A stretch of 64,000 nucleotides of DNA from an uncultured Chloroflexia bacterium (GTDB lineage Bacteria > Chloroflexota > Chloroflexia > QHBQ01 > JADMIH01), in the NCBI GenBank assembly GCA_963797095.1, contig CAWCNY010000006.1:1-64000 (forward strand). Direction: 5' to 3'. Position numbers and translations under genes: made by a program. Of the stretch, positions 22,126 through 55,129 are shown piece by piece (the first letter of the stretch is position 1; every line of letters starts with the position of its first letter). Under the pieces are notes generated by a model. The model made no database searches. It saw only the letters and a program-made list of their open reading frames with translations, and was not told the DNA's origin.

Positions 22126-22445
22126 TCCCTATTTCCTTCCACGCAGATAACAATTATCAAGTACAAGGGGATTGACCCTCGCCGTTGTGCGACGAAACGA
22201 GTATAGCACCGCGAACCATTCCCAGACAATAACATCCGGGGAGCCTTTCCAATCCCACCTTACATTTGCCCTCACATACTTAATGCCATTAAGCAGCCAA
22301 AACCGGACATGTTTGAGCCATACTTTCGGGTAGTCTCTTGTTCTAGGAGAAGGTCGGGGGTGCGCGCCATCTTTTAGGAAGGAAAGAAAAATGATACCCT
22401 CTAGGTGAAGACATCCCGGCTAAGGCCGAAATCCTGGAGGGTATC

Positions 22446-24012
22446 ATGCAGAGTAGCGAGTTTCAGGCCGTTTGCGACCTGTCACCTGCCCTCACTAGTA
22501 TTGTGAAGGAATTTGAGGGGCTCGTCAAACAACTTTGGATATATGCTCAACGCAACCCGGATGCTACTTTGAGCAGTCTCGAAGAAAGAGCACGTCAACT
22601 GCGCTCGGACTGTTTCGCCTCAGCCTTAGAAGCCGCAGCCCAACTGCATCGTGCCATGATAGAGGAAGAATGGCTGCTTGGGCACAAGCAGTGTGACTGC
22701 GGGCAGACACCCCAGTACAAGGGTAAGCAGCGGCGCACTGTGCAAACATGGGTAGGCACGGTCACATTGGAGAGAGGTTACTTCTACTGTAAAGGGTGTG
22801 GCACCGGACGCTACCCGCTGGATGAGGCTCTAGGCATACCCGCACGGGAACACTTCTCGGACGGAGTGCAACAAGGAGTGTGCCTGCTGGGTGTGCAGAT
22901 GCCTTTCGAGCAGGCTGCACATGCAGTGGAGGTACTCACTGGCATGTCGGTCTCTCCAAGAGAAGCCGAGCGCATGACTGAACAGAGGGGGCTTACATTA
23001 GAGGGGAGCTTGCAAGAGGAGAGCTTGCAAGAGGAGAGGAGAGCTTGCAAGAGGAGAGGAGAGCTTGCAAGAGGAGAGGAGAGCTTGCAAGAGGAGAGGA
23101 GAGCTTGCAAGAGGAGAGGAGAGCTTGCAAGAGGAGAGGAGAGCTTGCAAGAGGAGAGGAGAGCTTGCAAGAGGAGAGGAGAGCTTGCAAGCAGAAGATC
23201 AAACGCTAGGGGCAAGTCCCACCTCTCAGAAAGGTTCAAAGGTTGCAGATGGAGCATTGGGCTTGGGCACATGGGCGGCGACGCTGGACGCTGGCAAGGT
23301 GCGCTACGAAGATGGGTGGCATGACGCTAAAGCGGGAGTGGTGTTTTGGGCCGAGCCTGCATACAACGAAGCAGGAGAGATAGAGGGGGCAAGAGCCACC
23401 CATCAGAGCTATGTGGCGGAGGTCGGCTCGATGGAGCGGGCAGGAAAGCGGTTGAGTGCTGAAGCATGGAGGAGAGGGATAGGCCCTGAGGAGCAGGTTG
23501 TATGTCTGGGAGATGGGGCACCCACCAACTGGATACAGTTCGATGAGCACTTTGCCAACAGGGTAGAGGTACTCGACTGGTATCACGCCATGGAGCACCT
23601 GTGGCAAGCAGGTAATGGTATCTTCGGGCAGGGCACACCAGACGCCGCAAGATGGGTGAAGCGTTGGGAGAAGGAATTATGGGAGGGAAGGGTAGAAGCA
23701 GTCATTGTGGCTCTACACAGAGAGAGCAAACGTGAAGGGGAGGCGGGAGAAGCGGCACGAGAGCAGATTCATTACTTTGAGACGAACAAAGAGAGGATGC
23801 GCTACTCCGAGTACCGGGCATTGGGCTTCCCAGTTGGTTCAGGCACGGTGGAGAGTGCATGCAAGCGGCTGATTGGTGCCCGTCTCAAGGGAGCAGGCAT
23901 GTGTTGGAGCAAACCAGGAGCACAAGGGGTGCTGACACTGAGAGCCGAACTGCTCAGTGAGAGGTGGGAGCAATGCTGGCCCAAAACTCGCCCTCTCAGA
24001 AAAGTCGCCTAA
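22446..24012 (+). pseudogene. ISKra4/UPF0236-like DDE transposase, frameshifted within tandem repeat
   Basis: Split into ORFs 22446-23324 and 23065-24012; motifs 'LGDGA', 'LDWYHA', 'GSGTVESACK'. Confidence 0.88.
23009..23183 (+). repeat. 20-bp tandem repeat array (one 15-bp unit + 8 x CTTGCAAGAGGAGAGGAGAG)
   Basis: Directly visible; 175 bp, not a multiple of 3. Confidence 0.95.
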
Positions 24013-24044
24013 ACGATGGCGCGCACCCGAAGGTCGGTTCCCTA

Positions 24045-24169
24045 TTGACAGGGGCTTGCCACGGTGCTAATATGGGAGCGATCCCGCGAACGCCGTTGTA
24101 TCACTCAATTTGTGCGTGGTGATCGCGATTTAATAGCTTGAACAGGTGAGCGGCTTGTGAGCGCTCCCA
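24045..24169 (+). promoter_or_regulatory. Promoter and two CelR/CebR-like LacI operators
   Basis: TTGACA(24045)-17-TAATAT(24068) with extended TG; TGGGAGCGATCCCG (24073-24086) and TGTGAGCGCTCCCA (24156-24169). Confidence 0.75.
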
Positions 24170-24193
24170 CAACGCTGTGAGGATTAAGCGTTC

Positions 24194-25192
24194 ATGTCTC
24201 CCACACTGGTTGAAATTGCAAAACGCGCAGGTGTCTCCCGTTCGACCGTTTCTCGGGTGATGAACGACCATCCCAACGTGGATCAAGCGACCAGGGCGCG
24301 GGTCTTGTCGGTCGCCGAAAGCCTGAACTACCAGCCCAATATGGCGGCCCGCAGCCTGGCCGCCGGGCGCACTCGCATCCTCGGCCTGGCGATTCCTACC
24401 GGTGTAGCTACCCTTTTCACAGACCCCTACTTCCCCCTCCTCATACAGGGGATCACTTCTGCCTGCAACGCCCACAATCACTCGGTCATGCTCTGGCTTG
24501 GCGAGCCGGAATACGAGCGCTTGACGATCCGCCAGATCCTGCAAGGCGGCCTGATCGACGGCGTCATTCTAGCCTCCGCTCTGACAAGCGATCCGATTTT
24601 ACAGGCGTTGATAAAGCACCACCTTCCGTTCATCTTGATTGGCCGCCATCTGGGGAATGACTCTGTAAGCTACGTCGATGCGGATAACCTGGGCGGCTCG
24701 CGCCAGATGGTTTCGTATATGTTGCGCCTGGGCCGCAAGCGCGTCGCTACCATCACGGGCCCAAAGAATATGATCGCCGGTATTGACCGTTTGCAAGGCT
24801 ACCTGGACGCCTTGCGCGACAGGAAGATCGCCCTCGACCCGAACTTGATCGTGGAGGGCGACTTCACTCAAGAAGGCGGATACAGGGCAATGCAACAGCT
24901 CTTACCTTTCGACCCGGATGCCGTCTTCATCGCAAGCGATGCCATGGCGCTGGGTGCGCTACGCGCCTTGCACGAGGCGGGCAAGCGCATCCCCGAGGAT
25001 ATAGCTGTCGCGGGGTTCGACGATATCCCCTTCTCCGCACGAACCGACCCTCCCCTCACTACCATCCGGCAACCAATTCAGCGATTGGGCTCTGTTGCCG
25101 CCGAGACCTTGATTGACATGATAAGCCATCCCGGCACTCAACCTCAGCGTGTGGTTCTGCCAACCGAGCTGGTTATTCGCGAAACCACATAG
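24194..25192 (+). CDS. LacI-family transcriptional regulator (CelR-like)
   Basis: 'TLVEIAKRAGVSRSTVSRVMN'; 'PPLTTIRQP'. Confidence 0.95.
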   Translation: MSPTLVEIAKRAGVSRSTVSRVMNDHPNVDQATRARVLSVAESLNYQPNMAARSLAAGRTRILGLAIPTGVATLFTDPYFPLLIQGITSACNAHNHSVMLWLGEPEYERLTIRQILQGGLIDGVILASALTSDPILQALIKHHLPFILIGRHLGNDSVSYVDADNLGGSRQMVSYMLRLGRKRVATITGPKNMIAGIDRLQGYLDALRDRKIALDPNLIVEGDFTQEGGYRAMQQLLPFDPDAVFIASDAMALGALRALHEAGKRIPEDIAVAGFDDIPFSARTDPPLTTIRQPIQRLGSVAAETLIDMISHPGTQPQRVVLPTELVIRETT

Positions 25193-25386
25193 CTCGCTAC
25201 TCGTCACTCGTCACTCGTCACTAGCCATCTCGCCGCCCAATTTCCTATTGACTCCCGCCATCATTGTTGCTATCATCAGTCTCACTCTTGCTATTATTCG
25301 TTTCCTCATGCACCTGTATCGCCCCAAAGTTTGCTCTCAACCCAGGCCGGTTCAGCGTGCCACATGAGGTCAAAAAGGACAGAGCC

Positions 25387-25689
25387 ATGAAGAAGCCCAG
25401 ATGGTTTTCGATACTGTCGATGCTCGCTCTCATGCTTGGCGTATTTCCGATGGCACGTAGCGTATCGAGTGCGCAGGGTGGCTCGCGCACTTTTCCCGAA
25501 ACGGGGCACACAGTAAGTGGATTGTTCCTCGACTATTGGAACAATCACGGCGGCCTGTCCCAACAAGGCTATCCTATCTCCGAAGAGATGCAAGACTTTT
25601 CGGATACCGGCGGCAAGACCTATACAGTGCAGTACTTCGAGCGTGCCGTCCTCCAACCCGGCTGGACCCTTCTTACTTCTATCAGATGA
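25387..25689 (+). pseudogene. Truncated secreted LGFP-like module gene
   Basis: Signal peptide + 'RTFPETGH...GYPIS...VQYFERAV', then stops where paralogs continue with 'FE.HPEN'. Confidence 0.6.
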
Positions 25690-27857
25690 AATCAACTCTA
25701 CCCCGCTACGACCTCATAGACCCCGCCATCGAATCTCGCGTCGATGACCTCCTCGCCCGCATGACCCTGGCCGAGAAGATCGGCCAGTTAGTCCAGTTCG
25801 ACGCCAACCGTCGCGACCTCCCCGACCCCGCCGATAATATCAAAGCGGGCGGGATCGGCTCCATCTTCGGCATCGCCGACGTGGCCCGCGTCAACCGCTA
25901 CCAGCATCTCGCCGTCGAGCAGTCGCGCCTCGGCATCCCTCTGCTGGTGGGCAACGACGTGATCCACGGCTTTCGCACGATCTTCCCCATCCCCCTCGCC
26001 GAGTCGTGCACCTGGGACATGCCGCTCCTCCAACGCGCCGCGCGTGCCGCCGCCGACGAAGCCTCGGCCTTCGGCACCGACTGGATCTTTGCTCCTATGG
26101 TCGACATAGCGCGCGATCCCCGCTGGGGCCGTATAGCCGAGGGCGCGGGCGAAGATACATACCTGGGCATGCAGGTAGCCAGGGCGCGAGTGCTCGGTTT
26201 CCAATCTCCCGACCTCTCCAGTGGCAGGCGCATCGTGGCCTGCCCCAAGCACTACGTCGCCTACGGTGCGGCGGAAGCGGGCCGCGATTACAACACCGTC
26301 GATATCTCCGAGCGCGCTCTGCGCGATGTCTACCTCCCGCCCTTCAAGGCTGCTTTCGAGGCGGGCGCCGGCTCTGTCATGAGTGCCTTCAACGAGATCA
26401 GCGGCGTGCCCGCCACCTCTAACGCCTTCACCCTCACCACTATCTTGCGCGACGAGTGGCAGTGGGCGGGCATGGCGGTCAGCGACTACGAATCGGTTCG
26501 CGAGTTGATCCCGCACGGCGTGGCAGCCGACCTCAAAGATGCCGCCCGCCTCGCCATCCTGGCCGGTCTCGACATGGATATGGTGAGCAACGCTTACGCG
26601 CACCACCTTGCCGAACTGGTCCAGTCGGGCGATGTGCCCGCATCGGCGATTGATGAGGCCGCGCGGCGCGTCCTCCGCCTCAAGTTCCAGGTCGGCCTCT
26701 TCGAAAAGCCCTACACCGACGAAACCCTCATCTCCCGCGTGATCCTCACCGAGGACACCCGCGACCTCGCCTTGCAGGTGGCCCAGGAGTCGATGGTCCT
26801 CCTCAAGAACGAGGGGGGCTTGCTCCCCCTCTCCCCAGGCGCTCAGCGGATCGCCCTCATCGGCCCCCTCGCCGCCTCTCGCGCCGACCTTCTCGGTTGC
26901 TGGGCTTTCTGGGGTCTTCCCGATGACGCCGAAACCGTGCTCGAATCGATCTCCTCCTACCTGGGCGATCAGACCATCGAGCACGTTCCAGGCTGCCCCG
27001 TAGGCGACGAAGGCCCCACCGATATCCCCGCAGCCATGGCAGTCGCCAGCGAGGCCGATGTAGTGATCCTGGTCCTGGGCGAAAGCGCCTCTATGAGCGG
27101 TGAGGCCCATTCGCGCACCCATCTCGGCCTCCCCGGACGCCAGCAAGAACTTTTGGATGCCCTTGCCGCCACAGGCAAGCCAATCGTCGCCGTGGTGATG
27201 AGCGGCAGGCCCCTTGCGATCCCCCGCGTGGCAGACCAGGCAACAGCCCTCCTCGCAGCCTGGCACGGCGGCACCCTCGCCGCTCGTGCCATCGCGGGCA
27301 TCCTCTTCGGCGCGGCCAACCCCTCCGGTAAATTGACCGCAAGCTGGCCGCGCACCGAAGGCCAGATTCCTATCTACTATGCCCACAAAAACACCGGCAG
27401 ACCCGAATCTGGCGGCACCAAGCAGTTCGACGATCCGTTCAAGTCGGTCTACCTTGACTCGCCCAATTCCCCCCTCTTCCCCTTCGGGTTCGGCCTCAGC
27501 TACACCACTTTCTCCTACAGCAACCTCAAGGTAGAAACGCCCACCCTCCCCGGAGATGGCACCCTTGTCGCCAGCGTCACGGTGCGCAACACCGGCGACC
27601 GCACAGGCGACGAAATCGTACAGCTATACGTGCGCGACCTCGTGGGCAGCGTCACGCGCCAGGTCAAAGAGCTGAAAGGCTTCAAGCGCGTGACCCTCCA
27701 GCCGGGCGAGGAGCAAACCGTGCGCTTCGAAGTACCTGCCAATGACCTCGGCTTTACCGGCCTTGATATGCGCTACACAGTGGAACCGGGAACCTTCAAG
27801 CTCTGGATCGGGCCAAGCTCTGACGATGGGCTGGAAGGCGATTTCCAGGTGGAGTAA
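25686..27857 (+). CDS. bglX: GH3 beta-glucosidase (BglX-like, no signal peptide)
   Basis: 'MTLAEKIGQL', 'SRLGIP', 'DIARDPRWGR', 'KHY', 'VSDY' nucleophile, C-terminal Fn3-like 'VQLYVRD...KELKGF'. Confidence 0.9.
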   Translation: MKSTLPRYDLIDPAIESRVDDLLARMTLAEKIGQLVQFDANRRDLPDPADNIKAGGIGSIFGIADVARVNRYQHLAVEQSRLGIPLLVGNDVIHGFRTIFPIPLAESCTWDMPLLQRAARAAADEASAFGTDWIFAPMVDIARDPRWGRIAEGAGEDTYLGMQVARARVLGFQSPDLSSGRRIVACPKHYVAYGAAEAGRDYNTVDISERALRDVYLPPFKAAFEAGAGSVMSAFNEISGVPATSNAFTLTTILRDEWQWAGMAVSDYESVRELIPHGVAADLKDAARLAILAGLDMDMVSNAYAHHLAELVQSGDVPASAIDEAARRVLRLKFQVGLFEKPYTDETLISRVILTEDTRDLALQVAQESMVLLKNEGGLLPLSPGAQRIALIGPLAASRADLLGCWAFWGLPDDAETVLESISSYLGDQTIEHVPGCPVGDEGPTDIPAAMAVASEADVVILVLGESASMSGEAHSRTHLGLPGRQQELLDALAATGKPIVAVVMSGRPLAIPRVADQATALLAAWHGGTLAARAIAGILFGAANPSGKLTASWPRTEGQIPIYYAHKNTGRPESGGTKQFDDPFKSVYLDSPNSPLFPFGFGLSYTTFSYSNLKVETPTLPGDGTLVASVTVRNTGDRTGDEIVQLYVRDLVGSVTRQVKELKGFKRVTLQPGEEQTVRFEVPANDLGFTGLDMRYTVEPGTFKLWIGPSSDDGLEGDFQVE

Positions 27858-28161
27858 ACAGCCGTTCCTGGTATTATTCCTGGAATATTCCTTAATTCTT
27901 ATTGACACAAGTGGCACTCCACTGCTACAATGAGCCCTGTCTGCCCTCCCAACATCAAAGGCGGTCCCTGTCACTTTTTTGGCTCTCTGCACTACTCAGA
28001 TCCTATATATTCAACCGTCCAACTCATCTTACCGGACCTGCCGAGCGTGCCCGCGCTAGTTGCGCTGGTGCGCTATTAGTGTTTGTGCAGACTCAAGACT
28101 TTGCCCCGCACAACATACAATCGTGCAGGTTCATATCTGTTCGTAAGAAGGAGACAAGGGT

Positions 28162-30372
28162 ATGCGACGTCGATTAGCGTTCCTGTCCGTGGCCTCTCTG
28201 GGCGCTTTCCTCTTGATGGCGTTCTTGTATCTAAGCGCCAGCGCCGAGCTTCCGGTGGCCGTCAGCCCTGCGTGGGGCCAATCTCCGCAAGGCGGCCCCA
28301 CGGCTACCCCCACTCCTTGCGGGGCCTCAGGCACATGGAGTGTGCGCGCACCTCTTCCGGTCGATGCTTTTGGCGTGATGGTTGCTAGCGATGGCACCTA
28401 CGCCTACGCTATAGGCGGTTACAGCTATTCCACGAATGCAGCGCTCACTCAGGTCTGGCGCTATGATCCCGTAGCCGATACATGGACCTCCCGTGCCGCC
28501 CTCCCGGCCGCCACCTACAGCGGCGTGGCGGTCTACGGCAACAACGGCAATATCTACGTGTTCGGCGGCACCGACGCCACCGATGTCTATAACACCACTC
28601 GCATCTACAACATCTCCTCCAACTCCTGGAGCACCGGCGCTGTGATGCCCGGCAACCGCCAGCAGATGGCAGCCGGTTACTCATCATCCGGCAAAATATA
28701 TATTGCAGGCGGCTACGACAGCACAAGCGTCAGCCCGCAAGACCAGACCTGGGAATATGATATTGCGGGCAACTCCTGGGCAACCAGGGCCTCCATGCCC
28801 CAGGCTTTGGGCGGGGCAGGCTCCGGCGCTATCGGTACTCACATGTTCGTGGCAGGTGGCCGCGATCAGTCTACCGCCGCCCGTAGCACTCTCTACGACT
28901 ACGATATGGCCGCCAACACCTGGACCTCCCGCGCCAGCCTCCCGACAGGTGTTAACGTGCCTGGCGCGGCTGTCGCCAACGGCAGGCTTGCGATTTTCGG
29001 TGGCGGCAACCCGTTCCTCGATGGCCCGGTGCCTGGCTTCCCCGCGAGCGCCGCCCCCTTTACCACCGGCATCGCCCAACTCTACGATCCCGTCAGCGAC
29101 ACCTGGTCTACAGGCCCATCTCTGAACGTGGCGCGCTCCTTCATCGGTGGCGCGGCCATAGGTACCATCTACATAGTGGCCGTAGGAGGCTTCGACGGCA
29201 CAACCTCCGTCGCCACCAACGAAGTAAGCGGCCCCGGCCCTTGCATCACTGTCACTCCGGTTACCAACACCCCCACCTCTACTCCCACCACCATCCCCAC
29301 GTCCACCAACACCCCCACCTCCACCTCCACCCCCACCTCTACTCCCACTAACACCGTTCCAGCGGCCACCAACACTCCTACCCGCACCCCCACAGGCCCA
29401 CCTCCGCCCACAAGCACGCCCACTAATACCTCTCCCCCTGCTACCGGCACATCCACCAACACCCCCACGAACACCAACACCCCGCTCCCCACTCAGACCC
29501 CTGGCGGCCCCACCGCTACCCCTGAACCTTCCGACACTTCAACACCTACTTTTACCTCCACATCCGTCGCTACCGAAACCTCCACTCCTGTACCTACTGA
29601 GACAGGCATCGTGAACCCCACCGACACAGCCACGCCTGTTGCCTCCGGTACAGCCACCCAACTTCCAGGCACCGCCACCCAACCACCCGGTACCGCCACT
29701 CCCACCTCCTGCCCGCTCCAATTTGAAGATGTGCCACCCAACCATACCTTCTACGCGTTTATCAGGTGCATGGTCTGTCGAGGCATCATCAACGGCTACC
29801 CGTGCGGCGGGCCGGGCGAGCCTTGCAATGGCAACAACGACCCCTACTTCCGCCCAGGCAATAACGTCACCAGGGGCCAGATAGCCAAGATCGTGTCCAA
29901 TTCCGCGGGCTTCAACGAAGCTACCGGCCCGCAACAGTTTGAGGACGTGCCGCTCGGCTCGACCTTCTACGATTTCATCTGGCGACTCACCATCCGTGGC
30001 ATCGTTTCCGGCTACCCATGCGGAGGCCCGGGTGAGCCTTGCGGACCCACCAATCGCCCTTACTTCAGGCCCAACGGCACCGCCTCGCGAGGCCAACTGG
30101 GCAAGATCGTCTCCGAAGCCGCAGGCTTTAACGACACTCCTACCGGACAGACCTTCGAAGACGTGCCCATAGGTTCAACCTTCTACCTCTACATCGAACG
30201 TCTAGCAACCCGCGACATCATGGAAGGCTACCCATGCGGAGGTCCAGGTGAGCCTTGCGTATCCCCCACCAACAGGCCCTACTTCCGCCCCTCTGCAGAC
30301 GTGACCAGGGGCCAGACCTCCAAGATCGTGGCAAATACATTCTTCCCAGACTGCTATACACCTTCGCGGTAG
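28162..30372 (+). CDS. Secreted Kelch-repeat beta-propeller protein with Pro/Thr linker and three SLH-like repeats
   Basis: Signal peptide; 'Y..GG...YD....W' Kelch repeats; PT-rich linker; 3 x 'FEDVP...[11 protein letters not shown]...YFRP...(T/S)RGQ'. Confidence 0.85.
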
Positions 30373-30412
30373 AACCGCGGCGAAGCATGAAGAACAGAAA
30401 GGAGCTAGCACC

Positions 30413-31912
30413 ATGCAAGTAACCCCTCACACCCATCGCCGGTGGTTCTTGAGGTCCCTGGCGGTCGCCGCGCTTATGGCCCTGTCCGCCAATCTCGTTT
30501 CCGCAAGCGCCCCCCTCTCGCTCGTGCGCGTCAGCACCGACCCATACACCAATACAAGCAGCATGCACCAGACCGAGTTGGAGCCTGATACCTTTTCCTA
30601 CGGTTCCACCATCATCGGCACCTTCCAGGTTGGCCGCTTCAACGATGGCGGCGCTTCCAACATCGGTTGGGTCAGGTCCACTGATAACGGCGCTACCTGG
30701 ACGAACGGCTTCCTCCCTGGCATCACCATCTACGGCTCGCCTGCCGGTCCCTACCAGCGCGTCAGCGACCCCTCCGTCGTCTACGATGCCATGCACCACG
30801 TCTGGATGATCATGTCCCTTCCCCTCAACGGGGGCGGGGCCGGCCTCAACATGAGCGTCAACCGCTCCACCGATGGCGGGGCTACCTGGGATAACCCCGT
30901 CCAGATGGTCAACCAGAGCGGCCTCGATAAGAACTGGATCACCTGCGACAACACCCCCACCAGTCCCTATTACGGCCACTGCTACGGCGAATGGGACTAC
31001 AACGCGGGCGGCAACCTCATGCAAATGACCACCTCCACCGATGGCGGCCTCACCTGGTCTCCCCCCATCGCGCCGAGCGGCAACCCCAGCGGGTTGGGCG
31101 GCCAGCCTCTCGTTCTGAGCACGGGCCGTGTGGTCGTTCCCTATAGCGCCAATTTCGGCCCCATCCGCTCTTTCGTCTCCACCAATGGCGGCACGAGTTG
31201 GAGCAGCGTCGTAACCGTCGCCACAGTCACCGATCACGGCGTAGCGGGCAACATCCGCACCAGTGCCCTGCCATCCGCCGAGGTTGATGCCCGTGACCGC
31301 GTTTACGTTGTGTGGCAGGATTGCCGCTTCCGCACAGGCTGTTCATCAAACGATATCGTGATGAGCACTTCCACCGACGGCCTGACCTGGAGCGCGGTTA
31401 CCCGCATCCCCATCGATGCCACCACCAGCACTTTTGACCACTTCATACCAGGCATAGCCGCCGACCGCAACCGTGCCGACCCTATTACCCACCTCGCCCT
31501 CACCTATTACTATTACCCCACCGCCAACTGTACCACCACCACCTGCCAGCTTTCCGTTGGTTTTGTCTCCTCTATTGACGGCGGCGCTACCTGGACCTCC
31601 CCCGTACAACTCGCCGGGCCGATGACCCCCACCTGGCTCCCCCTCACCAACCAGGGCTACATGGTAGGCGACTACATTTCAACCTCTATAAGCTCAGACG
31701 GTAAGGCCCACACCGTCTTCTCGGTAGCCACGGCCCCCAGCGGCGGCATCTTCGACGAAGCCATGTACGCCCCCGTGCCCGGCCTCTCCCTCGGCCTCTC
31801 CACCGCCCGCCTCAAAGGAGCGCCCACCACCAACCCCGTAACAAACGACCCCCAACTATACTTCGGTCCCTCAACCCGCCTACTGCCCAACACCCTGCCC
31901 ACAGCGCACTAA
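30413..31912 (+). CDS. Secreted BNR/Asp-box (sialidase-fold) protein
   Basis: Twin-Arg-like signal 'HRRWFLRS'; repeated 'S(T/I)D(G/N)G.TW' Asp boxes. Confidence 0.8.
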   Translation: MQVTPHTHRRWFLRSLAVAALMALSANLVSASAPLSLVRVSTDPYTNTSSMHQTELEPDTFSYGSTIIGTFQVGRFNDGGASNIGWVRSTDNGATWTNGFLPGITIYGSPAGPYQRVSDPSVVYDAMHHVWMIMSLPLNGGGAGLNMSVNRSTDGGATWDNPVQMVNQSGLDKNWITCDNTPTSPYYGHCYGEWDYNAGGNLMQMTTSTDGGLTWSPPIAPSGNPSGLGGQPLVLSTGRVVVPYSANFGPIRSFVSTNGGTSWSSVVTVATVTDHGVAGNIRTSALPSAEVDARDRVYVVWQDCRFRTGCSSNDIVMSTSTDGLTWSAVTRIPIDATTSTFDHFIPGIAADRNRADPITHLALTYYYYPTANCTTTTCQLSVGFVSSIDGGATWTSPVQLAGPMTPTWLPLTNQGYMVGDYISTSISSDGKAHTVFSVATAPSGGIFDEAMYAPVPGLSLGLSTARLKGAPTTNPVTNDPQLYFGPSTRLLPNTLPTAH

Positions 31913-31974
31913 TCCAGCGAACGAAAGACGATAGACAAAGGACGATGGGAATGCACCCCATCGTCCTTTGTCTT

Positions 31975-32064
31975 CCAACTACCGGCTACCGACTACCGAC
32001 CAACCAGGAACCAGGAACCAGGAACCAGGAACCAGGAACTTGGAACCTCCGACTACCGACTACC
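31975..32064. repeat. Heptamer tandem repeats (CCGACTA-like and CCAGGAA x5)
   Basis: Directly visible 7-nt periodic tract. Confidence 0.85.
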
Positions 32065-32119
32065 GTCCTCCGTCCACAGACCAATTCCCTTCCCCTATAC
32101 AAACCCTTATAATGTCGGC

Positions 32120-42711: not shown

Positions 42712-42835
42712 TTGGTTCTCCTACCAGAGCAGTCGACAGCCCAAATAACCGGCAACCGACTACCAACAACTAACAACCAGGAACCTGAAACTATCGTCCC
42801 TCGTCCTTCGTCTATCGTCCATTGTCAACCGGCAA

Positions 42836-43382
42836 CTAGCACTCAGGCATCGGCGCACGGCAGATGTACACCCTGCAAGGTGCATGCTTCATCACATAGG
42901 GGATTGTCTTGCCCAGGTCCAACTCGCCCAGCTTCTTCTGGTATGGGGTGGACATCACAATCAGCTCACTCGCGCTCTCTCGCGCCATATCCACTATGGC
43001 TGCGCCCGCGCTCCTGGCCTGCAAGATCGTGGGCATCCACTTCCAATCCCAACTCTTGGGCCACCTTCTCGGCGTGGTCCAGGGCCTGTTCGCCCTTCTC
43101 TACCTGGTCAGGGAGGTCGGCATCAAGGGGCAGCGAGTGCGGCACTTGCACCACATACACCACGTCCACGGCCACGTGCCGTCCCTTGCCTTTTTTGCCC
43201 AGCGCGTACGTATACGCCAGCCTCATCGCCTCGTCGTCGATGTCGGCTCCCTTGACCGTTACCATTATTCGTTTGGGCTTGTTGTCTCTCTCCCTTTCTT
43301 TATCGTCTCCGTTGCCGTTATGACGGTCACGGTTAAATATGCTAGCCAATGTTTTACTCTTTCCTTCTCTTTCCTTGCTCAT
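42836..43382 (-). pseudogene. Universal stress protein (USP), frameshifted
   Basis: N-part 'RIMVTVKG...VYVVQVP' and C-part 'ILQARSAGAAIVD...LGKTIPYVMKHAPCRV' are in different frames; one extra base at ~43031-43033. Confidence 0.85.
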
Positions 43383-46363: not shown

Positions 46364-46398
46364 TCTACCTGATTCGAGTCAACAGTGAGGTACCGCCT

Positions 46399-46668
46399 AT
46401 GAACGCTGAACTGAAAGATATCGCTTCTTGTCTCTTCCTGGCGGCCATATTCATAATACTGGCCCTCCTCTATGGGTGGTTCGCTTCCGCTGGCCCCAGC
46501 TACGCAATGCGAAGGCTGATGCAGCAGTGGCCGGGACGCAATCCCCGCACAGATCCCAAGAGCGATGACTATCTGCATAGCCTCGTCGAAAAAGGGGTAA
46601 AGCAAAGCAAGAACGTCGGTGAAGATTGGGAGAAACTAGAGGGACCCGATAAAGATGCTCCCTCCTGA
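46399..46668 (+). CDS. Small single-TM hypothetical protein
   Basis: GAGGT before ATG; one hydrophobic helix. Confidence 0.5.
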   Translation: MNAELKDIASCLFLAAIFIILALLYGWFASAGPSYAMRRLMQQWPGRNPRTDPKSDDYLHSLVEKGVKQSKNVGEDWEKLEGPDKDAPS

Positions 46669-46742
46669 CCCCAATCGTCTCTCCATCTCTTGCTATCGGA
46701 CCTCTAAGAGGTTACAATTAACTGTAATCTACCTAGAGGAAA

Positions 46743-49646
46743 ATGATGCCCCGCAAGAAAGAAACTAAGAAGAGCGAACTGGAAGAGATAGTAAGCCATT
46801 CTACAAGCGGCAACGGTTTCGATGCCGAAGGGATGCTCGATGCCATAGAATCGGGCGATTTTGATGAGCCTATCATCGAAATAGATATAGTCCAAGCCCA
46901 GGAAGGGTCCGCCTCTCCCGAAATCGGTGAGCCTATCACCGCCGAGCCTGATGAAAAACCTGCTCGCCGCCGTCGCACAGGAGGCCGCAAACGCCCCATA
47001 AATGACAACAGCGTGCGTTTGCCGCTTCTCCCTCTGCGCGACATGGTGATTTTCCCACACATGGTCACGTCGCTATTTGTGGGGCGAGAAAGATCGCTTA
47101 AAGCTATCGAAGCAGCCATGACGGGCGAGCGTGCTCTGGTTGCTGTTGCCCAGCACAACCCAGAAGACGAAGAGGTTGGGCCGGAAGACCTCTACGATAT
47201 GGGCGTGGAGATAGTGGTTGGCCGCTCCCTCAAGATGCCCGATGGTACCGTCTCCCTGCTGGTACAGGGCCAGCGCCGCGTGCGCATCCTTCGCTATGTG
47301 CGCAACGAACCATTCGCGGTTGTCGAAGGCGAAACTATCGAAGACTCGCTCGATAAGACGGCGGCCACCGAAGCCCTTATGCGTGCTGTGCTCGCCCTCT
47401 TCGAGAAGATCGTCAAGTTCTCGCCCAACCTCTCCGAAGAGTCCTTTGTTGCCGCTATGAACGTGGATGAGCCTGGTTGGTTGGCCGATCTGATCGCCTC
47501 CACGGTCGAGCTAAACCACGAGAGCCGCCAGCAAATCCTCCAAAGCGTTGACCCCGTAGAGCGCCTACAGACCCTCAGCCTCATGCTCGCAAAAGAGCTT
47601 GACGTGCTCGATCTCAAGAACCAGATACAGGACCGCGTTCAGAGTGAGGTGGACAAAAGCCAGCGCGAGTTCTATCTGCGCGAGCAAATGAAGGCTATTG
47701 CCCAGGAGCTACAGGACTACGACCCGGCCACCCGTGAGGCCAACGACCTGCGCACCAGGATTGAAACCGCCGGTATGCCCGAAGAGGTTCAGAAGAAAGC
47801 CCTCGATGAACTGGAGCGCCTCCAGGCTATGCCCATGGGCATGCCCGAAGTGGGGGTTATCCGCACCTACCTTGATTGGCTGATCACCCTACCCTGGCAC
47901 ATTGAGACCCGCGATCATCTTGACATAAAAATGGCAGGGCAAGTGCTCGATGCCAACCACTACGGGCTTGGCAAAGTCAAGGAGCGCATATTGGAGTATA
48001 TGGCCGTGCGCAAGTTGGCCGAGGGGAAGATGCGCTCTCCGATCCTCTGCTTCGTTGGCCCTCCCGGCGTGGGTAAGACCTCGCTTGGACGCTCGATTGC
48101 CACTGCGCTTGGGCGCAAGTTTGTACGCGTGTCGCTGGGCGGTATCCACGACGAGGCTGAGATCAGGGGTCACCGCCGCACGTATATCGGCGCGTTGCCA
48201 GGCCGGATCATCCAGACTATGAAGACCGCCGGGACCATAAATCCGGTCTTCATGATGGACGAGATCGATAAAGTGGGAGCCGACTTTCGGGGTGATCCCT
48301 CGGCGGCTCTCCTCGAAGTGCTCGACCCCGAGCAGAACAATGCCTTCTCCGACCACTACCTTGATGTGCCTTACAACCTGTCGAAGGTCTTGTTCATCAT
48401 GACCGCCAATATCCTCGACCCGATCCCGCCGGCCCTTCTAGACCGTATGGAGGTGATAGAGCTTCCCGGCTATATTGAAGACGAGAAGTATCACATCGCC
48501 AAGCAATTCCTGGTGCCCCGCCAGATCGAAGAGCACGGCCTCACTCCTGCTCACATCAAGTTCTCAGATGGGGCGATCCGTCGCCTCATCCGCGAGTACA
48601 CTCGCGAAGCAGGCGTACGCAACCTGGAGCGAGAGATCGGCACCATCTGCCGTAAGGTCGCCAAGCAAGTGGCTGAGAATATGCCCCCCGAACCTATGGA
48701 CAGCGATCAAGCAAACGGTATGATATCGCCTTTCCCTGGCTCCGGACTCGCGGCTATTCCTTCACAAATTCATGACCCCACCTCCCAGGAATTGAACACT
48801 GAGCCGCTCGATGCAAGTGCCCTGGAAACTGAGGTTTCCGGCGTATCGTCGGATATGGCTCCGACCCCTCTTCCTGTCGAAGATGGCGGCGCTAGCAAGC
48901 AGCGTCGCATACGAGCGCGCGTGATCCACGACACCGACATCGAAGCCTACCTCGGCGCACCTCGCTTCGACTACGGATTGGCCGAGGAGAAGGATGAGGT
49001 AGGTGTAGCAACAGGAGTCTCATGGACTCCCGTTGGCGGTGACACCATCAGCATAGAAGTTAGCCTGATGGAGGGCAAGGGCGGTCTACTTCTGACAGGA
49101 CAGCTGGGAGAAGTTATGAAAGAGTTGGCTCAGGCCGCCCTCAGCTATGCGCGCTCTCGCGCCCGCCAACTTGGTATCGACCCTGCCCGCTTCGAGAGGA
49201 CAGACATCCACGTACATGTACCCGCCGGTGCGATCCCTAAGGATGGCCCTTCGGCAGGTGTTACCATGGCTACAGCCCTGGTGTCGGCTCTAACCGGCAG
49301 GGAAGTACGCCGTGACGTAGCGATGACCGGCGAGATCACCCTGCGCGGCAAAGTTCTCCCTATCGGCGGCCTCAAAGAGAAAGTGCTGGCGGCCCACCGT
49401 GCGGGTATTGCCACCTTCGTTCTCCCACGCAAGAACGAGAAGGACCTGGATGAGATACCGGGCAAGGTGCGTCGCGGCCTTCAAATGATACCTGTTGATG
49501 AGCTTGACGCCGTACTGGCGATAGCCCTCCGGCCGGCCCCCGGCCAATCGGATGTCAAGCAAGAGTCGCCCGTCAAGCCGCCACTCCCTGTCAAGGCGCG
49601 CACCCAGCGTCGTGGCGAAATGCCGGGCACGGTACGCGCAACCTGA
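46743..49646 (+). CDS. lon: ATP-dependent protease La (Lon)
   Basis: LON-N '[10 protein letters not shown]', Walker A GPPGVGKT, 'PKDGPSAG', 'PIGGLKEK'. Confidence 0.97.
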
Positions 49647-49662
49647 TACGTGATGTCCTAAC

Positions 49663-49699
49663 AGAAAGAAGGACGCTTCTTGTGAGCGTCCTTCTTTCT
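49663..49699. terminator. Bidirectional intrinsic terminator
   Basis: 15-bp stem AGAAAGAAGGACGCT/AGCGTCCTTCTTTCT between convergent genes. Confidence 0.8.
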
Positions 49700-49772
49700 A
49701 TTGCGGCTATTGCATTGTCGGAGAGGTAGGCGTTTTTGTCACGCCTTCCCTACAAGTGGCTGTGACAAGCCA

Positions 49773-52100
49773 TTAGCGTGTAGGTGCACACGAAGAGAAG
49801 AAGGAGTTACTTACTATTTTGCTTGTCTGACCTCGTGTGACTGTACCTGATGGGCGGAAGTAGGGGCGGTTTAGAGGTGCGACACAAGGCTCGCCTGGGC
49901 CTCCGCAAACGTAGCCTCCGATAATGCTCCGACCGGCAAGACGCTCGGTGTAATCATAGAAGGTTGAGCCAGGCGGAACGTCCTGGAATGTTTGTCCGCT
50001 CACAGGATCGGTGAAGCCTGCAGCAATTGAAACGATTTTGGTGAGTTGTCCTCGCGTAGCCTGGCCGTTAGAGCGGAAGTAGGGGCGATTGTCGGGGCCG
50101 ATACATGGCTCGCCTGGGCCTCCGCACGGGTAACCCAACATCACATTGTGAGACACCAGTCTGCCGATGAACTCGTAGAATGTCGAGCCCGGGACCACAT
50201 CCTCAAAGGTCTGGGCGAGAACCGGTTCCGTGAAGCCCGCAGAGTTGGACACTATCTTGGCAATTTGGCCCCTGGTGACGGTGGCCTGTGGGCGGAAGTA
50301 GGGGTCGCTGTTACCATTGCAAGGCTCGCCATCTCCACCGCATGGGTAGCCGTTGATTATGCCCTCGCATGCCAGGCAGCGCGCGTACGGATAGAACGTG
50401 TTGTCGGGTGCGACGTCGGCGAATTGGATAGCGCAGGACGTGGGAGTCGCAGTATCTGTTGAGCTGGGAAGCGACGTATCTGTTGGTATTGGTGATGGCA
50501 CGTTCGTATCGGTGGCTATGGGGGTTACGGAAAGCCCTGGGGTTTGCGTCGGCGGAGTGGTAGGTGTGTCTATTGGTGTGCTTGTACGAGTGGAAGTGTT
50601 GGCGGGAGCATTGGTAGGTGTGTTCGTTGGCGTGCGCGTAGCCGTGCTGGTACGAGTAGCCGTGCCGGTGCGGGTAGCTGTATCGGAAGGTGGTACGGGG
50701 GTCGCAGTAGGACCGCCAGGCGTTTGGGTGGGTGCAGTAGTGGCTGTATTGACAGGAGTGTCCGTGGTAGTAGGGCTGTCGGTTGGAACGTTAGTGTGAG
50801 TGGCAGTTGCGATAGTTGTTGGTGTGTTAGTATCTGTGGCAATTGGGCTGCCTGTTGGTACGCCAGTGTGAGTAGCAGTAGCGGTCGATGTGCGTGTGCG
50901 GGTGGACGTGGGGGTTCTGGTGCGGGTGGCAGTGGGAGGCAGCGCAGTTGGTGTGCGCGTTGCGCTGGGCGTCGCGGTAGGCGGTGTGCCCGTGGGAGTG
51001 TTGGTTGGTGTGCCACTATTGAAATTTGTAGCTTCGGCTAAGATCCTATTCTTGACCGATACTCCATAAGGGTCGCTTGGTACGAAGTTGGTTCTTGGTC
51101 CAGTTAGCAAGCATGGACACCCCTCACTGTCGAAAATCCAGGCAGTCCAACTTATATGACGTGTTCCATTGTTCATCAGCGTCATGAGTTTGTCGGTATC
51201 TTCCTGATCCATCTGGCCGCCTGTGCCAAACTCGGTTACTAATACCGGATAGCCGGCATCGGCAACGGGCAAGAAATAATCCCAATCGTTTGTGGTGTAG
51301 TAATGGTCATATGGGTGTGAAGAGTAGACAACATTTTCCCCTCCATCTGCTTGAATTGGATCAAGATAACCTACCCCGTACTCATCTACAACAACAGGAC
51401 TTATATCCCGTCCATAGCCGTCGCCTGATGCTAAGATAAGGTGTTTATTGGGAGATGGATTGTCTACTGCACGCATTGCAAGAATCATACGGTCGTAGGA
51501 AGGACGAAGGGTATTCCATGTCACGTGGTAATATTGGCCGTTCCAATTATCGCTATGGGGCTCTGCCTGAAGCATGAACATGACGTTTGATTTGTCTCTA
51601 TACCGCTGTACCAGATCTACCAAAGCTTGCTGCGCATTTGGATCCACATCCGGGTTAGGTGGCTGGTCTCCATTTATAGTCGGGTAGTAATAGCAGAATA
51701 TGATATACATTCCGTTCTGCTCGGCAAGTTGCTGGTACTCGTCGAGCACTCCAAGATAAGTAGCATCACCCGCAACTACTGGAGCCGAGGCAAAGCCATG
51801 AGTTATGAGGTTCGCATGCCAGGTGGAAGCAAGTTCGGGCATAGCTAATCTCTCATAGCTCATATCTGGATATACCCATTCATTTCGTAGTACATTTACG
51901 CCTCTTAGCTCTACTCGCTCATTGTTGTCAACACGTACTATCTGGCCGTTCATTGTTTTGAGCCAGGGTAAGTTAGTTGTCGTAGGTACATTAGAGCTAA
52001 TTTGCAGTGCAGGTCTGGCGAGACCTTGTAGGGGGGTTGCGGCGACAACGAGAATGGAAATAGCAGCCAGGGCTGCAAGAGTGCGTATGATCCTATTCAT
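49773..52100 (-). CDS. Secreted GH5 (cellulase-family) glycoside hydrolase with Pro/Thr linker and three SLH-like repeats
   Basis: 'LRGVN', 'QAEPH' acid/base, 'YSSHPY', 'PVLVTEFG' nucleophile, 'WTAW'; SLH repeats with CGG(P/D)GEPC. Confidence 0.82.
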   Translation of the reverse strand: MNRIIRTLAALAAISILVVAATPLQGLARPALQISSNVPTTTNLPWLKTMNGQIVRVDNNERVELRGVNVLRNEWVYPDMSYERLAMPELASTWHANLITHGFASAPVVAGDATYLGVLDEYQQLAEQNGMYIIFCYYYPTINGDQPPNPDVDPNAQQALVDLVQRYRDKSNVMFMLQAEPHSDNWNGQYYHVTWNTLRPSYDRMILAMRAVDNPSPNKHLILASGDGYGRDISPVVVDEYGVGYLDPIQADGGENVVYSSHPYDHYYTTNDWDYFLPVADAGYPVLVTEFGTGGQMDQEDTDKLMTLMNNGTRHISWTAWIFDSEGCPCLLTGPRTNFVPSDPYGVSVKNRILAEATNFNSGTPTNTPTGTPPTATPSATRTPTALPPTATRTRTPTSTRTRTSTATATHTGVPTGSPIATDTNTPTTIATATHTNVPTDSPTTTDTPVNTATTAPTQTPGGPTATPVPPSDTATRTGTATRTSTATRTPTNTPTNAPANTSTRTSTPIDTPTTPPTQTPGLSVTPIATDTNVPSPIPTDTSLPSSTDTATPTSCAIQFADVAPDNTFYPYARCLACEGIINGYPCGGDGEPCNGNSDPYFRPQATVTRGQIAKIVSNSAGFTEPVLAQTFEDVVPGSTFYEFIGRLVSHNVMLGYPCGGPGEPCIGPDNRPYFRSNGQATRGQLTKIVSIAAGFTDPVSGQTFQDVPPGSTFYDYTERLAGRSIIGGYVCGGPGEPCVAPLNRPYFRPSGTVTRGQTSKIVSNSFFSSCAPTR

Positions 52101-53197
52101 ATTTCTTTCCTTTTGCAAGGGCGACTTGCTGGTATCATGCTCTCCTGGGAAACCGCATCACAAAATGCAAAATACACGTCGCTCCTGGTAACTCACCTTA
52201 CGCAGCCAGGCGAACAGGTTGAAGTTGGCGGAAGGTATCAAAGGCAACCTGCATGGCACGCAAGTAGATAGTGCTCTTTAGAGCAAAGTGGTTGAGATGA
52301 TTGGACAGCTTCAACAATTCGAGCTTGACGTACCCACACAAAGAGGCAAACAAATGGTTGGTCTGGGTGCACACTGTGTGAGTTGGCGAGCGTTCCAAAG
52401 AAGCATTCTGCTTCAGCGACTTGTGATACTCTTCCACGTTCCACCGTCTCTGGTAGATTGTGGTGATTTGGTCGAAGGTGCATGTCACATCCGAGCACAC
52501 CAGATACTGGGTGATTTGACCACCATCTTCGTTTGCGAAGAGTTGCTTGACCAATATCAAGGGGAAGTCTATCCCTTCAAGATAGACCGTCCGCACCTCA
52601 CCCGTCTCCAGCGGCACACTGTCCACACGCATGTACCGACCCTGTCGTTTGTCTCCCTCGGTAAAGGCCACCTTGCGGTTGGTCTTGAGAGGCATGATGA
52701 AATCCCCCTCCAATTCGACTTTGACGAAGCGCATATTGTCCGCCGAGGCATACCACACGTCATTGAGCACGAAGTTGAGTACGAAGCGGAACAACACTTG
52801 GTTGTGCTTGGCTTGCCGCAACAACGCCTGATAGTGCTCGTTCTTACTGACCGGATCACGCCGCTTGGTTTTGCCGTCTTTAGGGTCCACATACTGCTCG
52901 GTCTTTCTTACCAACCGAAAACCCACGGGCAGCGACACCTCCAACTCAGGCACATGGTACAAGGCCGAGAGGAAGTTTATCCCCTTGACCGTTGTGCCTT
53001 TGGAGTGGTCATAGTGCCAGGCGATGATGTCGTTCTCATCTGTGTACGGCTTCTCCGAGATGGAGTCGTCCACGATGATGCACCCATCTTCTTGCTCAAC
53101 GGCTCGCACGGGTGCGCGCCATCTTTTAGGAAGGAAAGAAAAATGATACCCTCTAGGTGAAGACATCCCGGCTAAGGCCGAAATCCTGGAGGGTATC

Positions 53198-54709
53198 ATG
53201 CAGAGTAGCGAGTTTCAGGCCGTTTGCGACCTGTCACCTGCCCTCACTAGTATTGTGAAGGAATTTGAGGGGCTCGTCAAACAACTTTGGATATATGCTC
53301 AACGCAACCCGGATGCTACTTTGAGCAGTCTCGAAGAAAGAGCACGTCAACTGCGCTCGGACTGTTTCGCCTCAGCCTTAGAAGCCGCAGCCCAACTGCA
53401 TCGTGCCATGATAGAGGAAGAATGGCTGCTTGGGCACAAGCAGTGTGACTGCGGGCAGACACCCCAGTACAAGGGTAAGCAGCGGCGCACTGTGCAAACA
53501 TGGGTAGGCACGGTCACATTGGAGAGAGGTTACTTCTACTGTAAAGGGTGTGGCACCGGACGCTACCCGCTGGATGAGGCTCTAGGCATACCCGCACGGG
53601 AACACTTCTCGGACGGAGTGCAACAAGGAGTGTGCCTGCTGGGTGTGCAGATGCCTTTCGAGCAGGCTGCACATGCAGTGGAGGTACTCACTGGCATGTC
53701 GGTCTCTCCAAGAGAAGCCGAGCGCATGACTGAACAGAGGGGGCTTACATTAGAGGGGAGCTTGCAAGAGGAGAGGAGAGCTTGCAAGAGGAGAGGAGAG
53801 CTTGCAAGAGGAGAGGAGAGCTTGCAAGAGGAGAGGAGAGCTTGCAAGAGGAGAGGAGAGCTTGCAAGAGGAGAGGAGAGCTTGCAAGCAGAAGATCAAA
53901 CGCTAGGGGCAAGTCCCACCTCTCAGAAAGGTTCAAAGGTTGCAGATGGAGCATTGGGCTTGGGCACATGGGCGGCGACGCTGGACGCTGGCAAGGTGCG
54001 CTACGAAGATGGGTGGCATGACGCTAAAGCGGGAGTGGTGTTTTGGGCCGAGCCTGCATACAACGAAGCAGGAGAGATAGAGGGGGCAAGAGCCACCCAT
54101 CAGAGCTATGTGGCGGAGGTCGGCTCGATGGAGCGGGCAGGAAAGCGGTTGAGTGCTGAAGCATGGAGGAGAGGGATAGGCCCTGAGGAGCAGGTTGTAT
54201 GTCTGGGAGATGGGGCACCCACCAACTGGATACAGTTCGATGAGCACTTTGCCAACAGGGTAGAGGTACTCGACTGGTATCACGCCATGGAGCACCTGTG
54301 GCAAGCAGGTAATGGTATCTTCGGGCAGGGCACACCAGACGCCGCAAGATGGGTGAAGCGTTGGGAGAAGGAATTATGGGAGGGAAGGGTAGAAGCAGTC
54401 ATTGTGGCTCTACACAGAGAGAGCAAACGTGAAGGGGAGGCGGGAGAAGCGGCACGAGAGCAGATTCATTACTTTGAGACGAACAAAGAGAGGATGCGCT
54501 ACTCCGAGTACCGGGCATTGGGCTTCCCAGTTGGTTCAGGCACGGTGGAGAGTGCATGCAAGCGGCTGATTGGTGCCCGTCTCAAGGGAGCAGGCATGTG
54601 TTGGAGCAAACCAGGAGCACAAGGGGTGCTGACACTGAGAGCCGAACTGCTCAGTGAGAGGTGGGAGCAATGCTGGCCCAAAACTCGCCCTCTCAGAAAA
54701 GTCGCCTAA
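53198..54709 (+). CDS. ISKra4/UPF0236-like DDE transposase, in frame (503 aa)
   Basis: Continuous ORF; CxxC Zn motifs; 'LDAGK', 'LGDGA', 'GSGTVESACK'. Confidence 0.9.
   Translation: MQSSEFQAVCDLSPALTSIVKEFEGLVKQLWIYAQRNPDATLSSLEERARQLRSDCFASALEAAAQLHRAMIEEEWLLGHKQCDCGQTPQYKGKQRRTVQTWVGTVTLERGYFYCKGCGTGRYPLDEALGIPAREHFSDGVQQGVCLLGVQMPFEQAAHAVEVLTGMSVSPREAERMTEQRGLTLEGSLQEERRACKRRGELARGEESLQEERRACKRRGELARGEESLQAEDQTLGASPTSQKGSKVADGALGLGTWAATLDAGKVRYEDGWHDAKAGVVFWAEPAYNEAGEIEGARATHQSYVAEVGSMERAGKRLSAEAWRRGIGPEEQVVCLGDGAPTNWIQFDEHFANRVEVLDWYHAMEHLWQAGNGIFGQGTPDAARWVKRWEKELWEGRVEAVIVALHRESKREGEAGEAAREQIHYFETNKERMRYSEYRALGFPVGSGTVESACKRLIGARLKGAGMCWSKPGAQGVLTLRAELLSERWEQCWPKTRPLRKVA
53761..53880 (+). 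repeat. 20-bp tandem repeat array (6 x CTTGCAAGAGGAGAGGAGAG)
   Basis: Directly visible; 120 bp, frame-preserving. Confidence 0.95.
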
Positions 54710-55129
54710 ACGATGGCGCGCACCCGGCTCGCACATGAGGCTTGACAAAATGCCACAGGTCAGCAGAGGTGAACTCTCCCTTGGAGAGGAAGCGTTGAAT
54801 GGGGTCATGGCTCACGCTTCCACTCAGCAATGCGCTCAAGCCCGTGCCGGTGGTCAGACCGAAAGAGCTTATCAGGTAGTCAGTGTACAGATCAAGCAGT
54901 TCTTTGTTCGTCATCCCTTTAGTCTACCATTCAACACTTCGGCTGCGTAAGGTGAGCTGGTAAATAATGGTTTCTAGAGGGGCGTGGTAATATGGACACT
55001 CTCCTAATTATGTTCCTACATCTTGGAAATCTGAATGGGAACTCTGTACCGGTAGCGCTGTGTGGATGGTCCCGGCGGGACATAGGCCAAATGGGTGATG
55101 TGGTGGGTTGGGGTGAGGCGGGTTTGCTC

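Follow-up and report, generated by a model that had tools for sequence, protein, structure and literature searches.

We analysed a 64,000-nucleotide stretch of DNA from an uncultured Chloroflexia bacterium (the window; C6:1-64000 of the 6.02-Mb assembly in 8 contigs, genome G000), which carries two copies of one insertion sequence (IS) of the ISKra4 family. Its transposase gene contains a tandem array of short units, and the two copies differ in this array only: one encodes a complete enzyme and the other is split. We suggest, with a probability of roughly 0.7, that a hypermutable composite minisatellite, specific to one IS lineage and placed in a permissive linker of an active transposase, toggles the reading frame of each copy at random.

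Array alleles and reading frames

Both copies lie on the plus strand. Copy 1 occupies 22358-24028 (1671 bp) and copy 2 occupies 53110-54725 (1616 bp). Copy 1 starts with the left inverted repeat (IR) GGGTGCGCGCCATC at 22358-22371, ends with its perfect 14-bp complement at 24015-24028, and is flanked by the 9-bp target site duplication (TSD) GAAGGTCGG at 22349-22357 and 24029-24037. Copy 2 has the same 14-bp IRs at 53110-53123 and 54712-54725, and its 9-bp TSD is GGCTCGCAC (53101-53109 and 54726-54734). A composite transposon built from both copies is ruled out, since each has its own TSD.

Outside the array the two copies are identical, and the 55 bp by which they differ belong to the array entirely. 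In copy 1 it consists of one 15-bp and eight 20-bp units (23009-23183, 175 bp), closed by the partial unit CTTGCAA at 23184-23190. In copy 2 six 20-bp units (53761-53880, 120 bp) are translated as two copies of the 20-residue peptide SLQEERRACKRRGELARGEE. The open reading frame (ORF) of copy 2 encodes the full-length transposase of 503 residues (53198-54709, plus strand), hence we call this copy ON. Copy 1 is OFF: its N-terminal ORF of 292 residues (22446-23324, plus strand) holds the complete N-terminal helices, Cys cluster and long helix, followed by the array and a 41-residue out-of-frame tail, and the frame with the catalytic (DDE) part is open from within the array to the stop codon (23065-24012, plus strand). 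The coordinates, lengths and unit counts, the identity outside the array and the pairing of an intact with a frameshifted ORF had all been given in a preliminary description of the window, and alignment of the copies bears them out. Tandem Repeats Finder detects the perfect 20-bp arrays at 23015-23191 (8.9 copies, score 354) and at 53752-53888 (6.8 copies, score 267); with such scores and matches of 99-100%, both are far beyond chance.

A BLAST search of the whole genome finds nine full copies and three truncated ones. Perfect ends are kept in all nine full copies, and a 9-bp TSD is present at eight of them, the exception being the copy at C1:516244-517893, where the flanks are rearranged. The arrays are built of a 15-bp unit, CTTGCAAGAGGAGAG, a 20-bp unit, which is the 15-bp unit with a second GAGAG, and one 25-bp unit; an optional part is a 19-bp duplication of the preceding CTTACATTAGAGGAGGGGG. 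This composite minisatellite is 65-184 bp long and comprises at least four units in every copy. Between fixed anchors the array region measures 185, 200, 146, 96, 215, 210, 206, 151 and 151 bp in the nine copies. If the 15-, 20- and 25-bp units are coded a, b and c and the 19-bp duplication D, the alleles are Dbaabaaab, Dcbbbaaab, abbbbb, aaab, Dbbaabbbba, Dbbbbbbbb, abbbbbbbb (copy 1), bbbbbb (copy 2) and again bbbbbb (C6:890786), that is, eight alleles among nine copies.

Since 20, 19 and 25 bp are not multiples of three, each change by such a unit shifts the frame of the catalytic domain. For the alleles seen, the frame is kept when (2 x n20 + n19 + n25) mod 3 = 0, the 15-bp units being neutral. 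The simpler rule proposed in the preliminary description, that every third copy number makes a full-length enzyme, thus fails, as the array mixes 15-, 20- and 25-bp units with the 19-bp duplication, and it is the added length that must be a multiple of three. Tabulated in this way, two of the nine copies are in frame, both with the allele bbbbbb, and seven are split. Five of the split copies enter one alternative frame, which stays open for 41 codons beyond the array, and have N-terminal ORFs of 272-295 residues; the other two enter the second alternative frame, meet a stop 6 codons beyond the array and encode 217 and 255 residues. It is well supported that the catalytic domain enters and leaves the frame through gain and loss of units and through 5-bp slips inside them, and equally that changes in array length are the main reason why seven of the nine copies are split.

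The 20-bp unit has no stop codon in any of the three forward frames, as was noted in the preliminary description, nor in the reverse frames. However, 24% of composition-preserving shuffles of the 20-mer are likewise free of forward stops, which rules out the use of this property as a sign of selection.

The split copies might be thought to make full enzyme by programmed recoding, with ribosomal frameshifting or transcriptional slippage in the array restoring the frame. A -1 frameshift is used by IS1, IS3 and, by report, ISMich2, as far as the accessible part of PMC3942029 goes. Nevertheless, neither an XXXYYYZ heptamer nor a homopolymer longer than 5 is found in or near the array of either window copy; the OFF copies fall in both alternative frames, so no single shift serves them; and two copies need no shift. 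The fixed two-ORF layout with a slippery site, typical of IS1, IS3 and ISMich2, is not found among the nine copies, where two have a single ORF and the others divide five to two between the alternative frames. We consider recoding extremely unlikely.

An artefact of assembly or read errors, with arrays truly equal at all loci, is also very unlikely. Perfect 20-bp arrays are hard to assemble, and contig C3 begins with about 3.5 kb that repeat the sequence from C1:518920 onward, which points to unresolved repeats in the assembly. But each of the nine full copies is embedded in a contig of 0.59-1.37 Mb between unique flanks, eight of them with a TSD of their own, and the arrays differ by complete 15-, 19-, 20- or 25-bp units arranged in different orders, without scattered indels. 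Array variants are moreover seen outside the assembly. In four soil sequencing runs of one study (X1-X4) contigs hold the IS at 99-100% identity, and among them the 19-bp duplication occurs in X1 and a 15/20 junction in X1-X3 (with a 5-bp omission in X3), thus neither variant is peculiar to this assembly.

As to the truncated copies, those at C1:518920, C2:908160 and C3:1 have starting points no more than 5 bp apart, in IS positions 975-980 at ...GCAAGAGCCACCCATC..., which may mark a breakage hot spot or a pseudo-end; they have no TSD. The one at C3:1-640 duplicates C1:518920-519560 together with at least 2.9 kb of flank; C3:1-3520 is identical to C1:518920-522440 (640 bp of IS and 2880 bp of flank), either as a contig overlap or as an unresolved duplication. 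The full copy at C1:516244-517893 has a left flank (...ACGAGGGG) much like the sequence to the right of the truncated copy 1 kb off (CACGAGGGG...), and this likeness suggests an inversion between IS copies.

Variability of the array and mobility of the element

For a comparison of the array with the rest of the element, 627 + 838 aligned bases outside the array (~1465 bp) were available in the nine full copies. They contain seven single-nucleotide polymorphism (SNP) columns, three of which are private to C2:997474, and one 15-bp in-frame duplication, in C2:175922. The unit-level minimum spanning tree of the array alleles has 19 steps; counting each multi-unit change once leaves 7 events as a minimum. 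Allele pairs are up to 8 unit steps apart. Because 100-200 bp have gathered as many changes as the other 1465 bp or more, the array is a clear mutational hot spot and the most variable part of the element.

The copies have probably also exchanged sequence. All four combinations are present at columns 579 and 587 of the right part in the nine copies, which indicates exchange between copies, so that a second route would exist by which an array, in frame or not, can pass from copy to copy. Copies 1 and 2 alone share TG at columns 587-588 of the right part, and GGGGAG in the lead-in unit is found only in these two and in C6:890786.

These data bear on the possibility of one-way decay, in which the array is a mutational liability that makes pseudogenes with hardly any reversion, and the element persists only as long as in-frame copies arise faster than they decay. 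Seven of nine copies are broken at the array alone, there is a single in-frame allele, three truncated copies are present, and a paralogous IS with a 17-unit hexamer array in the same genome is also dead, by a nonsense codon. We nonetheless regard strictly one-way decay as improbable. The distances of up to 8 unit steps imply several steps per lineage over three frames, with passage through in-frame states being likely; the sister copies 1 and 2 differ by 55 bp in the array and in nothing else; and conversion between copies would be a second way back to an in-frame array. As a single unit step separates each OFF allele from an in-frame allele, and signs of inter-copy conversion are seen, the OFF alleles are probably reversible.

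Comparison of insertion sites suggests that the array-bearing element has moved. Every one of the nine copies has four units or more, and a separate TSD flanks eight of them, so the array predates the insertions. In run X4 the right IS end continues into the flank of the truncated copy C2:907525. In run X1 it is joined to a sequence whose site is empty in G000, at C6:651616, just upstream of a TTGACA-17 bp-TATAAT promoter (C6:651560-651660). The X1 junction set against this empty site is an insertion polymorphism.

The sites have a common layout. In seven of the nine full copies the motif TTG[AC][CA]N (chance per site 1/256) stands exactly 16 bp past the right IR, usually with a -10-like hexamer 17-18 bp further on, and the same 16-bp spacing to a -35-like box is found at two distinct truncated copies and at the X1 junction. 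In the window, a sigma-70-like promoter lies by the right end of copy 1 (24045-24073, plus strand), with TTGACA at 24045-24050 starting 16 bp after the IR, a 17-bp spacer and TAATAT at 24068-24073. Past the right IR of copy 2 TTGACA follows at the same 16 bp (54742-54747, plus strand), and a simple pattern finds no -10 box there. Copy 2 interrupts another transposase gene (Pfam DDE_Tnp_1 / DDE_5; 52198-54914, minus strand), the pieces of which are 54914-54726 and 53109-52198. According to the accessible part of PMC3942029, several ISKra4 members keep one orientation when they insert, 13-17 bp ahead of sigma-A promoters. Promoter-proximal insertion is a known property of the family, and by these motifs our element matches it.

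Several observations weigh against a frequently toggling array in an active enzyme. Taken alone, the relative rate falls short of what is known from classical phase variation: events in the array are comparable in number to substitutions elsewhere, which suits an evolutionary hot spot and a fast switch alike. Both in-frame copies have one and the same allele, yet they show 3 differences in the right part. The pair is thus not simply the youngest, and the in-frame state may have spread by conversion. No contig in the four soil runs spans the array; sequence breaks off at 23029 and is taken up again at 23162-23204, and hardly any of it covers the flanks of copy 1. Relative to the IS body, a 50-nt record of the 20/20 type has a depth of about 3x in X1 and about 4.6x in X2, a difference that is prone to noise and carries no weight here. 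The ends of the paralogous elements described below share only the terminal GGGTGC with this IS; mobilisation in trans by the paralogous transposases is still conceivable, and the array-bearing enzyme need then not be active itself. Finally, the genome has 47 near-perfect arrays with a period of 10-60 and 4 or more copies (seven of these rows are this IS, and the arrays of two more of its copies fall below the filter), so the array may reflect a general proneness to repeats.

Examples of these genome arrays are C1:349005-349155, C6:106319-106459, C5:520781-520895 and C7:15489-15585. A 14-bp period is frequent among the 47, and certain units are found at more than one locus. Of the eight that were checked, three are without a Pfam match; those with a gene identified by Pfam lie upstream of the recognised domains (luciferase-like monooxygenase, IS110 transposase, inositol-phosphate synthase), several of them just upstream of the gene, or within proteins, with in-frame periods. 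A frame-switching situation as in this IS is found in none of these eight. In the window itself, 78-bp in-frame tandem repeats occur in a coding region at 15473-15745 and 16328-16479, upstream of copy 1.

The transposase linker and its relatives

The 503-residue protein matches the NCBIfam model NF033572 (ISKra4 family transposase) with 271.5 bits at a cut-off of 205, residues 43-489 aligning with profile positions 26-422 of 422. Matches to the related ISLre2 and ISH6 models score lower, and the Pfam match is UPF0236, at the N-terminus only. The ends of the element, with 14-bp perfect IRs and a 9-bp TSD, fit an IS of the ISKra4 family. An AlphaFold2 model, computed from a 29-row alignment, has a mean predicted local distance difference test score (pLDDT) of 80.1. 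The top five Foldseek hits to this model are all chains of the ISCth4 transposase (IS256 family), with E-values from 1e-9 (6xg8_A, the best) to 1e-4 and with low TM-scores of 0.20-0.40. The ISKra4 group consists of the p-MULT 4 transposases of the Mutator superfamily (Guerillot et al. 2014, PMC3942029, in its accessible part), a placement with which these model-based matches agree.

In an alignment with 28 homologues four cysteines upstream of the array (C83, C85, C115 and C118) are invariant, as are D263, D338, DWYH (359-362) and E451 downstream of it; D263, D338 and E451 are putatively catalytic. In the predicted structure the array makes up the last part of a 52-residue helix (171-222) and then a disordered segment (225-252, pLDDT below 50), and the first strand of the catalytic domain begins after it, at 257. 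The position given in the preliminary description, between a zinc-binding N-terminal part and the DDE domain, is supported in that the Cys residues precede the array and the catalytic domain follows it. Such a location in the model fits tolerance of insertions, and since the linker lies ahead of the catalytic domain, the OFF products hold the whole N-terminal part.

The homologues were chosen from the best 120 of 504 proteins obtained by a word-index search at E <= 0.001. The 28 aligned comprise the best 17 full-length matches, three others with an alignment identity of 67% and 8 from further away (45-82% identity, 438-493 residues). That homologous transposases might lack the array had been raised in the preliminary description, and the 40-residue insert is indeed absent from all 28, which read ...RGLALEESLQAEDQ... 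there, with a single SLQ. The array is also absent from an intact 473-residue relative in genome G037, and a 35-nucleotide unit pattern has 0 matches in metagenomic contigs. Among the 41 genomes searched the same IS is found in G000 only. Genomes of the same genus (G001, G002, G013 and G016, the last with a weak match) show only IS ends at contig edges, with unreadable linkers. A scan of genome contigs gives 6 distant relatives and no close one, and a plasmid collection searched in distant mode gives no match. By these searches the array is confined to one IS lineage and is not a family-wide feature.

The linker, however, does carry other arrays, the clear ones all in frame. Among 80 metagenomic relatives Tandem Repeats Finder detects linker arrays in four, all among the closest relatives: L036 has 9 bp x 11.8 + 6 bp x 3.5 (AGM/AGL and PV repeats), L044 has periods of 21, 9 and 6 bp, L047 has 12 bp x 3.5 and L048 has 6 bp x 3.7. 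L088 and L098 have weak 13-bp arrays of fewer than 3 copies near the linker end. Three paralogous ISKra4-type elements in G000, whose transposases are 63-64% identical in protein sequence and two of which are intact, have hexamers in the same linker: (TCAGGC) x 5.7 at C2:1185441-1186823 and at C4:654534-655916, and (CAGGTT) x 17.2 at C6:1025539-1027017, where the nonsense codon lies just upstream of the array. In every clear array of the relatives the period is a multiple of three. The linker itself is thus repeat-prone, and because the periods of relatives and paralogues are multiples of three, the out-of-frame 20-bp unit looks like a derived accident, a GAGAG slip in an in-frame 15-bp unit.

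These comparisons bear on a possible evolved phase-variable switch. According to this explanation selection on the element or its host maintains the out-of-frame minisatellite, fast reversible switching limits the transposition load with the copies staying revivable, and the truncated proteins inhibit. The units are indeed out of frame and stop-free, the OFF alleles are all one unit step from an in-frame one, all nine copies have intact ends, and the whole N-terminal part is kept in the OFF products. The insertion polymorphism points to an IS active in nature. Besides, frame-based control exists in the superfamily, as the sister group ISMich2 is reported, in the accessible part of PMC3942029, to have a two-ORF transposase joined by a conserved -1 frameshift. 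On the other hand, the array is present in one lineage and absent from the 28 homologues and the 80 metagenomic loci, the clear arrays of relatives have periods that keep the frame, and stop-free units are common among shuffles. An undirected walk over three frames is expected to give an in-frame share of 1/3, and we observe 2/9 of copies and 1/8 of alleles. With p = 1/3, at most two in-frame copies among nine have a probability of about 0.38, so neutrality fits and the in-frame share does not point to selection either way. With a single lineage, an unremarkable stop-free unit, a random-walk in-frame share and a minisatellite-rich genome, an evolved switch is possible but not indicated, and we hold it to be unlikely. 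Of the phase variation proposed in the preliminary description, we thus retain that array length decides the catalytic frame and that the array is the most variable part of the element (eight alleles in nine copies against seven SNP columns). The restriction to one lineage and the periods in relatives lend the remainder no support, nor does the in-frame share.

Random toggling by a hypermutable array could have arisen in the following way. The array would probably have started with an in-frame 15-bp duplication (SLQEE) around the ancestral ...EESLQAEDQ... codons. A 5-bp GAGAG slip in the 15-bp unit would then have given the 20-bp unit, which multiplied, with the 19-bp duplication and the 25-bp unit being later additions. 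Unit number and type would be altered by replication slippage or unequal exchange and by gene conversion between copies. As the linker presumably joins the N-terminal part, with its Cys cluster and helices, to the RNase-H-like DDE domain, each change by a unit of 20, 19 or 25 bp would move the latter in or out of frame. The seven OFF copies, having perfect ends, should still be mobilisable in principle. We infer slippage as the mechanism, the activity of the six-unit enzyme and any inhibitory role of the truncated proteins; the last is drawn solely by analogy with InsA of IS1, OrfA of IS911 and the two-ORF ISMich2.

A broader picture can be drawn, and we offer it tentatively, as rather doubtful. 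It would make the IS a selfish element with a heritable, reversible, copy-by-copy toggle in its own transposase. Most copies would be silent but revivable by slippage or conversion, the end-binding N-terminal proteins of silent copies would damp the active ones, and repeat-prone linkers would be a general tuning device in the promoter-targeting ISKra4 clade. If, instead, the array is only damage, it is a clear example of a repeat-prone linker disabling most copies of an IS family in one genome.

Comparison with known systems

Our element resembles other ISs of the ISKra4 group in its family score above the cut-off, in its IRs and TSD, in the 16-bp spacing to a -35 box in one orientation and, at low TM-scores, in its best structural match, ISCth4. 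It differs from them in its composite linker minisatellite with units that are not multiples of three, which is not seen in the 28 aligned homologues. The linker arrays of L036, L044, L047, L048 and the three paralogues are closer: they lie in the same region just after ...LEESLQAE..., are perfect or near-perfect and vary in length (5.7 vs 17.2 hexamers among the paralogues). However, their periods of 6, 9, 12 and 21 bp mean that changes in length never shift the frame. The array of our element would also provide a natural allele series (0, 3, 6 or 9 units of 20 bp, and mixed arrays) to test linker length in a promoter-targeting Mutator-type transposase.

At contingency loci of Neisseria and Haemophilus, slipped-strand phase variation proceeds through pentamer or tetramer repeats in surface or methyltransferase genes. 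A general description of slipped-strand phase variation is given in the accessible part of PMC3711429. The likeness to our element is considerable: a tandem repeat lies in the ORF, its unit is not a multiple of three and is stop-free, unit number sets the frame, and alleles differ between otherwise identical sequences. Unlike there, the units here are of 15-25 bp and not of 1-8 bp, and they sit in the transposase gene of a multicopy mobile element, which gives each cell a mixture of ON and OFF copies. The polymorphism is accordingly between paralogous copies and not between cells at one locus. Also, the repeat here is not conserved beyond one IS lineage. Arrays of this kind make many IS copies resemble pseudogenes in annotation, and they can be used as fast strain markers.

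In IS1 and IS3 the transposase is synthesised by programmed -1 ribosomal frameshifting. The likeness of our element to the frame control of IS1, IS3 and ISMich2, as far as the accessible text on these elements goes, is that the upstream product contains the DNA-binding part, the full enzyme needs the downstream frame, and mostly short product is expected. In contrast to these systems, it is heritable DNA change, separate for each copy, that makes or breaks the join here; the two frames stand in no fixed relation and there is no slippery site.

In the open-access literature, including the accessible parts of PMC3711429 and PMC12817950, we find no transposase whose frame is switched by a tandem repeat, although the supplementary element tables of PMC3942029, outside this scope, could hold one. 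What appears to be new here, with no precedent found in a transposase, is frame switching of the slipped-strand type in a multicopy mobile element, with units of minisatellite size. This may be set beside the known restraints on IS activity, namely weak promoters, programmed frameshifting, cis preference and inhibitor proteins. An unstable repeat that sets the frame at the DNA level would add a purely mutational route to an element that is mostly silent yet can be revived.

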